Assembly (NCBI GenBank): GCA_963693365.1
Contig: CAVNZM010000002.1
Coordinates: 16,339,615-16,403,614 of the forward strand
Reading direction: 5' to 3'
Length of the DNA: 64,000 bases
Origin: Amoebidium appalachense
Taxonomy: Eukaryota; Protista; Ichthyosporea
In this document: positions 5,649-23,234 of the stretch, one piece after another
Position numbering within the stretch: the first letter of the stretch is position 1
Layout of the letters: every line of letters starts with the position of its first letter
Made by a program: the position numbers and the translations under genes
The notes under the pieces: generated by a model
The model's input: the letters and a program-made list of their open reading frames with translations, nothing else
What the model was told of the DNA's origin: nothing
Databases searched by the model: none

Positions 5649-5759
5649 ATGTTTAGTGCTCTGTGGTGCCATCACACCCCTGGCTCAAGGGTGTTGACTT
5701 CTATCCGCTCCCTGTGTACGGCGGCTGAGCAGTCAATTGTGCGGGCTGTCAGGAAAAAG
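5649..5759 (+). other. Putative mitochondrial targeting presequence exon of the RecD2 gene
   Basis: Perfect Kozak context GCCACCATG. The peptide MFSALWCHHTPGSRVLTSIRSLCTAAEQSIVRAVRKK has no acidic residue in the first 26 aa and contains an R-S-L-C-T cleavage-like motif. The AAG|GTTTGC donor joins in phase 0 to the GCTAACAG acceptor ending at 5981. Confidence 0.65.
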
Positions 5760-20700: not shown

Positions 20701-23234
20701 CACACGCACACGCACACGCACACGCACGCACACACACACACACACACACACACACACACACACACACACACACACACACACACACACACACAGACACACA
20801 GACACACACACACACACACACACACACACACCGTCCTCCCTCCCCGTCCCATCCATGTAAGCGTATGTGACACCATCATGGCTCACGGCCAGTTAGGCAG
20901 AGTGTGGTGTAATTTGACATCAAAGTTTGGTTCAGAATCTTGCACCTGAATCGGTAGTGTTAGCATGTGCGATGGACTGAGCATACCCCATAGTTGTGCA
21001 GACGAAGAGGGGCCTACGGCAGTTGTGGATCCAAACAGAGGCTCCTGCCATGTTTTTAGACCAGCGGCTAGGGTCTGTCCTAATCCTGGACACACATTCC
21101 CTGGGCCCCCAACAGGGTTTATGGAAAACCTTCATAGAATTTCTTCTTACTTGCCTGCCGACACCATAATGACTGCGTGATCTAGAAAGGGGGGTTGGGC
21201 TGATCTTGCATGAAGCAGCACCACACATCTGTTTACACTTCATCCTTTGTTTTTAAATGCCGCCACTAGGGTTACTAGGGTTCATAGGTAAAGCTTACCA
21301 CGGTGCTTTAACACTTACGGCGATGGAAAAGCATTCTACAAATACCTCTCTGCCAGGTTTCCATAAAAGGCCAATCTTGCTGATCCGCACCCTTTGATTG
21401 GTTGACGCTTGTGCTGTGTTAACGATGAGTGCGTACGCAGGGAGCTACCAATTCTGTGTGGGCGCTATGAAGTGTATGTTGGGGACCGTGTGATGCAAAC
21501 AGTGAATGACTACAAGCGGGGTGTGTTCAATGGCGATGTGGGCACCGTGACACATGCTGACCCATTGACCCGTACGGTTAAGGTACGTGGGCAATGTAGT
21601 GCTGGCCGTTCTCTCCTTCCAGACCCACCACCCAGAGATATACAGATTAATTTACACAGCAGACACAGAGAGAGGCATGTGCACGCACACACGCCTGCAC
21701 ACGCTCACGCACACAAGTGCGCAAGCACTCTCTCACACAGACACAAACTATGCGCGTGTAGACCCACACACACCGTACCCACACACACACACTCACGTGC
21801 ACACACACATGCGCAGACAGACTGTGTGCACATAGACGAACTAAGGACATGATAAGAATGTTCTCGGACCAGAAAATGTGCACCTTTACCGAGTGAGGAT
21901 GTTTTTTTTTTTTTTTTTTTTTTTTTTTGGGGGGGGGGGGGGGGGGGGGGGGGGTTGCAATCCATGTACTGCTACATACTGCAGCAGACGACTGACCCCC
22001 AACAGGTTATGTGCATGAACCACACCCAGTCACCCAGTGCTAATATAGGCGTGCAGGTCTTATACCAGGACCAAGACACGGAGGTATCTTATGTAGGGGA
22101 GGACTACCAGCAGTTGGTCCTTGCATATGCTGCCACCGTGCATAAAAGTCAGGGCTGCGAGTATGATGTCGTGGTGAGTGCATTCCCCCCCCCCCCCACC
22201 CACCCACCCACCCTTTGTAGTGGCCCGTGCATTCCCCCCTTCTCCCCTTCCTCCCCGTTTGGGTTTCGTTGACGAGGTGAATGGGTCGAAACTCGGGTAC
22301 TGTGGATGACTTGGGGCAATCCTTGATGATTGGCTTTGCGTTATTATGCATATGCTTTGTATGCTTTGCATATTGCGACCACCAACCCCCCCGCTTGCTA
22401 GCCACCACCTGTGATGGCACCTGCTAAGGCATGTAACATGTTGTCCTCTTCCCATTTATTCTAAGACACAGGCACAGGAGTCATCTTGGTGGGCGTAGTG
22501 AGAGAGTGGTGCCCAGTGCTTAGTTGCCACATGCACACAGCCACAACAAACACGACACGAACGCAGGGACACACACGCCTGCTCGGGCCCCCTCTCACGT
22601 CTCGCTCTCTCTCCGCACACTTCCATCTCTTCCACTAGTTATACTAGTTGCCTGTCGCTGAAACAGTCGGATTCGCCCCAGCTGAATAATCCTTGGCCTG
22701 ATTAGCAATTGGCACGTCTGATTGAATGGAAACAGAAGGTCACAAACTTGGACTTCGCTAACTCCTGCTCACGTGCACACACACGCGCGCGTGCGGCACG
22801 CACACACATCGGCGCATGCACACACGCAGAAACAGGCACACAAACACACACACACACACACACACACACACACACACACACACACACACACACACACACA
22901 CACACACACACACACACACACACACACACCTCCTTCCCCCTCCCTCCCCACACACACACAGGTTCTACCCGTCTCCTACAGCACCAAATACATGAAGATG
23001 GCGGACCGTCGTCTCCTCTACACCGCCGTAACACGCAGCAAACAGCGACTCTACATTGTGGGCTGTGAGAGCAGTGTGTGTGACATTGTGGCACGCGACC
23101 ACGTACGGAGACGCATTTCGTTTTTGGCACCTCGACTCAACCATAAGTTACTGGATTGGGCTGCAACGGAATTTCAGGAGGAGGAGGAAGAAGGGTGGGA
23201 TAGTTTGAATAATAGTAGCGATGAGGAGGGGTAG
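5649..23234 (+). CDS. recD2: RecD2-type SF1B 5'-3' DNA helicase, ~846 aa, 22 exons: 5649-5759, 5982-6140, 6831-6972, 7621-7800, 8279-8402, 9564-9630, 10013-10146, 11040-11140, 11984-12133, 12880-12926, 13362-13433, 13844-13942, 14894-14953, 16233-16295, 17434-17577, 18324-18463, 19217-19306, 19598-19637, 20452-20537, 21441-21582, 22057-22173, 22962-23234
   Basis: Hand-spliced CDS is 2541 nt with consistent phases. Motifs in RecD2 order: N-terminal GTVTRVLYSDREKGFALFRL, HhH-like VPGVGPKRAQQIIDTFG, NPYNFLEVRGIRFEDVD, GHIAL, Q-motif SESQKRA, Walker A ITGGPGVGKTT, LCAPTGRAAKRL, TIHRLL, Walker B LVVMDETSM, LVGDADQLPSIAPG, RLTETHRQ, GDRVMQTVNDY..VFNGDVG, LAYAATVHKSQGCEY, LLYTAVTRSK. Exons 1 and 13 are the least certain. 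Confidence 0.93.
12112..12476 (+). repeat. About six degenerate tandem copies of the RecD2 exon 9 end/donor junction (~33 nt core)
   Basis: The true junction ATGGGCAATGACAAATTTTCAG|GTTAGACCCCC (12112) recurs at ~12165 (26/33 identical), ~12218 (24/33), ~12288, ~12338 and ~12445. Confidence 0.75.
13434..13670 (+). repeat. (GT)n-(GCGT)n compound microsatellite starting at a splice donor
   Basis: Directly visible. Representative of dozens of similar tracts, e.g. (GGGC)n ~16326-16415, (CA)n ~18846-18985, (GA)n ~39282-39500. Confidence 0.95.
17978..18110 (+). repeat. Dispersed intronic repeat, copy 1 (5'-truncated)
   Basis: GGGTACTGTGGATGACGTGGGCCCCCCCTGAGGATGGGCTCTGCTTATTATGCATACTC...GACGCATTCAA. 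Nearly identical to the reverse complement of 54827-54959. Flanked by poly-C on both sides. Confidence 0.9.
22257..22376 (+). repeat. Dispersed intronic repeat, copy 2 (diverged, retains 5' hairpin)
   Basis: GGGTTTCGTTGACGAGGTGAATGGGTCGAAACTCGGGTACTGTGGATGAC..TTATTATGCATA aligns with the copy at 54827-54996. Confidence 0.85.

Follow-up and report, generated by a model that had tools for sequence, protein, structure and literature searches.

We analyzed a 64,000-nucleotide stretch of DNA from Amoebidium appalachense (contig CAVNZM010000002.1, positions 16,339,615 to 16,403,614 of the forward strand; this whole stretch is hereafter the window) and identified a spliced RecD2 helicase gene that is real and is domesticated in its likely ichthyosporean host. 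RecD2 is regarded as a prokaryotic family, with nuclear HELB as its sole eukaryotic relative. The explanation that we favor, with a probability of roughly 0.55, is a domesticated RecD2 acting at mitochondrial forks or recombination intermediates. The location of the protein and the origin of its gene are questions that are not mutually exclusive.

The gene model was obtained by reading the window and translating candidate exons. The gene lies on the + strand and runs from an ATG at 5649 to a TAG at 23232-23234; all model introns are GT-AG and a single frame is kept. The supported model has 21 exons and 20 GT-AG introns (240-2290 nt; density approximately 8 per kb) and encodes 820 aa. Introns 1-6 were absent from the contigs of 2 of 3 runs, all from one sample whose library type is not on record as RNA; five of the GT..AG joints were listed, and the sixth was deduced from piece coordinates. 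Introns 7-20 were placed by splice signals and homology. A first-pass annotation of this DNA had proposed 22 exons and a protein of about 846 aa; the multi-exon GT-AG gene was upheld, but the 846-aa length was not reproduced. The same annotation had spliced exon 5649-5759 to an acceptor at 5982, whereas the contigs join donor 5759 to 6000 across a 240-nt intron, and the 5982 acceptor was rejected. The AG at 5980-5981 immediately follows a branch-point-like CTAAC, and the AG about 20 nt further on is the one used. The presequence-like exon is thus part of the helicase.

We took the ATG at 5649 as the start because the frame is closed by a stop 8 codons upstream and the next methionine is residue 179; one contig is contiguous from 5512 over the 5' part. 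Its context, GCCACC-ATG-T, had been called a perfect Kozak sequence; the upstream part fits, but position +4 is T and not G. A 45-nt candidate exon at 14894-14938 keeps the frame and would give a protein of 835 aa. Its donor, GTCGAC, differs from the other 20 donors, and motif Ib and Walker B are separated by 51 aa when it is included and by 36 aa when it is left out, compared to 29-35 aa in 33 homologues. We consider this exon doubtful, as it would fall in an insertion and is not required by homology; the lengths of the contigs (2034 and 2297 nt) are compatible with both models. A phase-1 reading of exon 13 was also rejected, since it leads into a stop within exon 14. No common intron-end sequence suggestive of intron-generating elements was seen. 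Separately, the 3' end of exon 9 recurs, together with its donor, as five degenerate copies at 12113-12475 in intron 9 (20-25 of 31 nt); Tandem Repeats Finder did not detect them. The features of the gene, all on the + strand, are as follows, with the basis for each in parentheses.

5512 (at least) to 5648, +: 5' untranslated region, with the in-frame stop at 5625-5627 and GCCACC before the ATG (contig).
5649 to 5759, +: exon 1, encoding 37 presequence-like aa with an R-3-type motif at 20 and no D/E ahead of residue 27 (contig joint, hand-computed features).
6000 to 6140, +: exon 2, first half of the OB fold, acceptor at 6000 (contig joint; Pfam OB_YrrC).
6831 to 6972, +: exon 3, second half of the OB fold (contig joint; Pfam, NCBIfam).
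7621 to 7800, +: exon 4, helix-hairpin-helix (HhH), HHH_5 (contig joint; Pfam, NCBIfam).
8279 to 8402, +: exon 5, first part of the RecD2 HhH domain, AAG acceptor (contig joint; own profile; PF14490, E 0.11).
9564 to 9630, +: exon 6, RecD2 HhH domain (contig joint; own profile).
10013 to 10146, +: exon 7, last part of the HhH domain plus helical N-terminal region (contig joint; own profile).
11040 to 11140, +: exon 8, N-terminal region (translation; own profile).
11984 to 12133, +: exon 9, linker to the motor (translation; own profile).
12880 to 12926, +: exon 10, Q motif (translation; own profile).
13362 to 13433, +: exon 11, motif I (Walker A) (Pfam, NCBIfam).
13844 to 13942, +: exon 12, motifs Ia and Ib (Pfam, NCBIfam).
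14894 to 14938, +: in-frame 45-nt exon, considered doubtful, that would add an acidic 15-aa stretch to domain 1B (frame; own profile).
16233 to 16295, +: exon 13, domain 1B segment, diverged from bacterial RecD2 (translation; own-profile comparison).
17434 to 17577, +: exon 14, motifs II (Walker B) and III (Pfam, NCBIfam, homologue comparison).
18324 to 18463, +: exon 15, motif IV (NCBIfam; own profile).
19217 to 19306, +: exon 16, domain 2A (translation; own profile).
19598 to 19637, +: exon 17, domain 2A (translation; own profile).
20452 to 20537, +: exon 18, domain 2A to 2B (own profile).
21441 to 21582, +: exon 19, SH3 (domain 2B) (SH3_13, E 3e-13; NCBIfam).
22057 to 22173, +: exon 20, motif V (Pfam, NCBIfam).
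22962 to 23234, +: exon 21, motif VI, C-terminal helix, acidic tail and stop (Pfam, NCBIfam).

When single exons were compared with NCBIfam (16 queries), TIGR01448 (RecD2) was the top family in all 9 that had any match, and the matches were collinear (model positions 38-712). Pfam families OB_YrrC, HHH_5, AAA_19/30, SH3_13 and UvrD_C_2 were found in 9 of 17 exon queries; the OB_YrrC (E 0.06 and 0.005) and HHH_RecD2 (PF14490, E 0.11) matches were weak, and SH3_13 scored 49.9 bits against its cut-off of 41. The spliced protein matched our own profile of 70 full-length bacterial and viral RecD2 sequences in a single domain match covering model positions 8-723 of 727 (563 bits), and the N-terminal region alone scored 126 bits (E 1e-40). 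On our own profile, the 820-aa form reached 569 bits, compared to 262-288 for five RecBCD-type RecD proteins (the profile for this comparison having been built without those RecD sequences), 331-780 for phage proteins and a median of 898 for 88 sequences. These 563-569 bits refer to our own profile, and TIGR01448, with its curated cut-off of 500 bits, was scanned with single exons only. The Q motif and motifs I, Ia, Ib, II, III, IV, V and VI were all intact, and 97 of 110 near-invariant columns were kept (62-81 in most phage RecD2).

Alignment to open reading frames from 91 loci extended from residue 36-51 to about residue 805 at approximately 31% identity, and the best of 165 later sequences by BLAST was bacterial (34% identity, 328 bits). 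The domain 1B segment is without the usual aromatic pattern; in SF1B (superfamily 1B) helicases the pin-loop is located in domain 1B (PMC4824106), so strand separation may differ here. Taken together, the own-profile scores and the conserved columns point to a divergent but apparently active RecD2, and the full RecD2 layout with intact SF1B motifs that had been read from the sequence at first pass was borne out. As a side observation on the family, the RecD2 frame of Labrys neptuniae (L033:134-3430), read from its first start codon, spans 1099 aa, of which the RecD2 match covers the part from residue 359 on; this could be a long N-terminal extension, a fusion or a wrongly assigned start.

Since RecD2 homology begins at residue 40-51, about 40 N-terminal residues have been added to the Amoebidium protein. 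This extension is acid-free before residue 27 and has a net charge of +6 over 40 aa; an R-3-type motif occurs at residue 20, and 14 of 30 residues are S, T, A or L. Its hydrophobic moment (0.56 over 18 aa) exceeds that of a mitochondrial kinase encoded in the same window. The start of that protein, a pyruvate dehydrogenase kinase, is similar to the extension, and an acid-free start of at least 29 aa was found in 3 of 4 holozoan kinase orthologues; a cytosolic-type reductase, also encoded in the window, has none of these features. The features were computed by hand and the criteria were fixed after seeing the sequence; 11 of the 646 ATG-started open stretches of the window showed the same combination. 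These features of exon 1 predict that mitochondrial import of the protein is likely. The first-pass claim of a mitochondrial presequence exon thus stands as far as the exon is presequence-like, spliced in frame and the only usable start, and the import itself is a prediction from the hand-computed features.

If the protein is a mitochondrial RecD2, the exon 1 presequence would import the helicase and would probably be cut after the R-3-type motif, near residue 22. The mature protein could then serve as an accessory 5'-to-3' motor on single-stranded DNA (ssDNA) at stalled forks and recombination intermediates of mitochondrial DNA (mtDNA). The OB/HhH N-terminal region may grip the other fork arm, as it may in the RecD2 family, and removal of RecA from ssDNA and a preference for forks may have been carried over from RecD2 of the B. 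subtilis and D. radiodurans kind. Mitochondrial single-stranded DNA-binding protein (SSB) or a RecA-like recombinase would be plausible partners. The divergent domain 1B may favor a protein-clearing translocase over a duplex unwinder.

The relatives of the gene were sought with single exons and with a tree. A search with the last exon (73 residues) against 1.84 billion representatives returned 14 matches, the best at 43.6 bits and 42% and none below 1e-10; the 10 of these 14 that were looked up were ENA, JGI or Logan records. This result makes it less likely that the library contains a close orthologue. Last-exon scans, which are sensitive to near-identical peptides only, yielded nothing from 17 viral and 551 metagenome stretches, and word-based single-exon searches for homologues found 0 of 53 and 0 of 18 candidates, which is weak evidence. 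A second, alignment-based viral scan returned the same 11 contigs again. In the Atlas, the last exon led to small bacterial UvrD_C_2 clusters only, and exon 1 gave nothing usable. The titles and abstract openings in the literature covered, from which subscription papers were mostly missing, mentioned no organellar or protist RecD2 and no eukaryotic one other than HELB.

For the tree, 166 sequences were cut to 92 at 58% identity; the set was without HELB, Pif1, giant-virus, cyanobacterial, Deinococcus and archaeal sequences. The protein fell on the RecD2 side of the split from 3 RecD rows (support 100), in an open basal group that included phage rows, and its branch length was 1.32 compared to a median of 0.52. 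A quick tree under a mixture model, after 39 rows were dropped (outgroups, long phage branches, fragments and redundant rows), gave no supported neighbours. Grouping with an alphaproteobacteria-rich set was not rejected by the approximately unbiased (AU) test (p = 0.518 for an 8-row and 0.694 for a 16-row group), the groups having been defined after seeing a tree and being mixed with other phyla. RecD2 was present in 71 of 81 genomes in the phylum of a genome titled Verrucomicrobiota. The phylogeny called for at first pass therefore set the protein with RecD2 and apart from RecD of RecBCD, while the alphaproteobacterial grouping was neither rejected nor supported. The RecD2-type gene was likely acquired from bacteria. 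That the acquisition was ancient, as also proposed, is plausible from the long branch and the 8 introns per kb, but no eukaryotic orthologue was found and a lineage-restricted gene fits equally.

Several points weigh against a mitochondrial RecD2 of bacterial descent. The first 30 residues hold 2 arginines only. The exon 1-2 junction (5759-6000), as shown by the contigs, forms RKKK at residues 35-38, a classic nuclear-signal pattern that had been overlooked at first pass. The 28-residue acidic tail at the C terminus may be a trait of nuclear type; its 10 D/E in the last 25 aa are surpassed in 1 of 70 homologues. The last-exon search gave no orthologue, though a related collection contains ichthyosporean proteins (as seen in the kinase search), and the tree names no donor. 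A straight endosymbiotic origin is weakened because RecD2 was found in 17 of the 251 alphaproteobacterial genomes sampled. No partner gene was seen, and an undescribed organellar maintenance system, as suggested at first pass, would so far comprise this one gene.

The basic patch and the acidic tail would suit a nuclear or dual-targeted RecD2 working at forks that pass through the poly-G/poly-C and microsatellite tracts abundant in this genome. G/C runs are abundant in the window, and Pif1 is described as acting in both mitochondria and nucleus (PMC3113762). However, a nuclear-only protein leaves the presequence-like residues 1-26 unexplained, and with no methionine before residue 179 there is no start for a short nuclear form in the style of Pif1. 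We therefore hold this alternative to be possible but unlikely.

A quite unlikely alternative is that the gene is a unicellular member of the HELB lineage, with one RecD2 acquisition in early Holozoa giving rise both to this gene, which kept the bacterial layout, and to animal HELB. The host is likely a unicellular holozoan, HELB is described as RecD2-related with a predicted N-terminal OB fold (PMC12143592; bioRxiv 2026.07.16.738708), and HELB is said to lack any known orthologue among lower eukaryotes (PMC7290933). Characteristic of HELB are an acidic RPA-binding motif that follows Walker A (human 493-517), a tail with cyclin-dependent kinase (CDK) sites and an N-terminal region without apparent sequence homology (PMC7290933, bioRxiv 2026.07.16.738708, PMC9169624). 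In the Amoebidium protein, the acidic insert is absent, the spacing from Walker A to motif Ia being 28 aa as in bacteria (27-30 in 69 homologues); Walker A and B are about 80 aa apart compared to about 115 in HELB; and the last 60 aa hold no S/T-P site, with the acidic tail instead of the CDK tail. No HELB was among the PDB matches, and no HELB-like name or source was among the 10 of 14 last-exon matches looked up. We did not file the protein as HELB because it has no acidic insert, no CDK tail and a clearly RecD2-like N-terminal region.

RecD-family helicases occur in giant viruses. The gene could have entered through a giant virus or mobile element and later been domesticated and filled with introns, and the 92-row tree did place the protein beside phage rows. 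A. appalachense has hundreds of giant-virus insertions, in which a few multi-exon expressed genes are possibly domesticated remnants (PMC11244446). However, these insertions are described as mostly intron-poor and silent (PMC11244446), whereas the RecD2-type gene has 20 introns, is spliced and has host neighbours; genes of A. appalachense are intron-rich, and the main text of that source mentions neither RecD nor a helicase. The protein also keeps more invariant positions (97) than most phage RecD2, its best BLAST scores are bacterial, the last exon found no viral relative, and the basal position may reflect long-branch attraction. Viral delivery is, in our judgment, very unlikely. Contamination, mis-assembly or a decaying pseudogene, for which the long branch and the lack of an orthologue by last-exon search could speak, is extremely improbable given that splicing is precise (GT-AG), the frame is unbroken, the motifs are intact and the introns contain host repeats. 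Integration into the host genome, argued at first pass from the intron load, is supported by the spliced joints, by third-codon-position GC (GC3, 0.63) and an observed/expected CpG ratio (0.64) inside the range spanned by pieces of the kinase and reductase genes nearby, and by a 133-nt host repeat in an intron of the gene that is 99% identical to one in a neighbouring gene's intron.

The most far-reaching reading, which we consider unlikely, is that this animal relative has a bacterial RecD2 domesticated as a dedicated mtDNA helicase, maybe as the bacterial-layout sister of animal HELB. If true, a host of a kind with several hundred small linear mitochondrial chromosomes, as described for Amoebidium parasiticum (PMC8303319), would have its first named candidate for replicating or recombining such a genome. 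The protein itself is a new type of candidate mitochondrial helicase alongside Twinkle and Pif1, a testable handle on mtDNA upkeep in a lineage of which one species has hundreds of linear mitochondrial chromosomes, and a sequence with which to test the origin of HELB.

The window also holds other genes and repeats. The pyruvate dehydrogenase kinase gene (58925-64000, +; Pfam BCDHK_Adom3) encodes a typical presequence, and its best matches were ichthyosporean. The kinase exon search gave 10 matches from 108 candidates: EukProt entries at 52% and 49%, which we take from their identifier prefixes to be Creolimax and Ichthyophonus, respectively, another EukProt entry, Capsaspora at 44%, and animals at 35-42%. 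From these matches the host is likely an ichthyosporean, though neither of the two species at the top. The multi-exon gene at about 53700-58180 (-), named aldo-keto-reductase-like by eye from its translation, was the negative control for the presequence features. A multi-exon gene at 1-3890 (+) encodes a Lys/Pro/Ala-rich protein that contains an acidic block, ends in a C2H2-like finger and resembles plant HD2/nucleoplasmin-type proteins; its finger exon had no Pfam match at E 0.01. Dispersed repeats of 100-170 nt at 17978-18110, 22259-22371, 54827-54995 and 63813-63916 lie in introns of three genes in both orientations, are 80-99% identical and are SINE- or MITE-like (short interspersed or miniature inverted-repeat elements).

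Two intronless copies at 31657-32211 and 40925-41502 (+; 79% DNA identity) encode a 184-aa hydrophobic protein, probably a four-pass membrane protein, with no Pfam match; the second copy shifts frame near a short duplication. Two further intronless copies at 36111-36775 and 48570-49234 (-; 96% identity) encode a protein of about 215 aa with a signal-peptide-like start and no Pfam match. With GC3 of 0.85 and a CpG ratio of 1.05, unlike its neighbours, the latter could be a more recent foreign gene. The paired copies of both genes suggest a tandem segmental duplication. A tRNA-like stretch with a B-box-like motif was seen by eye at 26400-26475; it is possibly a tRNA-derived repeat, since ARAGORN called no tRNA in the window.

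Compared to known systems, the protein shares the SF1B motor motifs and SH3 domain with RecD of RecBCD (TIGR01447). However, RecD lacks the N-terminal OB fold and HhH domains present here, TIGR01447 scored below TIGR01448 on every exon matching both, and the tree separated the two. Pif1, the SF1B 5'-to-3' helicase of mitochondria and nucleus, is the closest eukaryotic functional analogue. It is not known to have an OB/HhH N-terminal region and has an alternative start that is missing here, and among the families shown, Pfam PIF1 was matched by no exon. Vertebrate HELB (DNA helicase B) is likewise a RecD-like SF1B motor in a eukaryote with a predicted N-terminal OB fold; it is nuclear in G1, whereas the Amoebidium protein has a presequence-like start and a shorter, RecD2-like N-terminal region. 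Bacterial RecD2 is described as a fast ssDNA translocase using about one ATP per base with a preference for forks (PMC12143592), and as stripping RecA from ssDNA and modulating restart with SSB (PMC8989531). With this family (TIGR01448; B. subtilis RecD2/YrrC, D. radiodurans RecD2, PDB 3e1s), the protein shares the order OB, HhH, HhH and SF1B motor with SH3, all motifs and their spacing, and 31-34% identity over about 760 aa. Unlike bacterial RecD2, it comes from a nuclear gene of a eukaryote, split by 20 (or 21) introns, scores 569 bits against the median of 898, and carries a divergent domain 1B segment between a presequence-like extension of about 40 aa and a 28-aa acidic tail.

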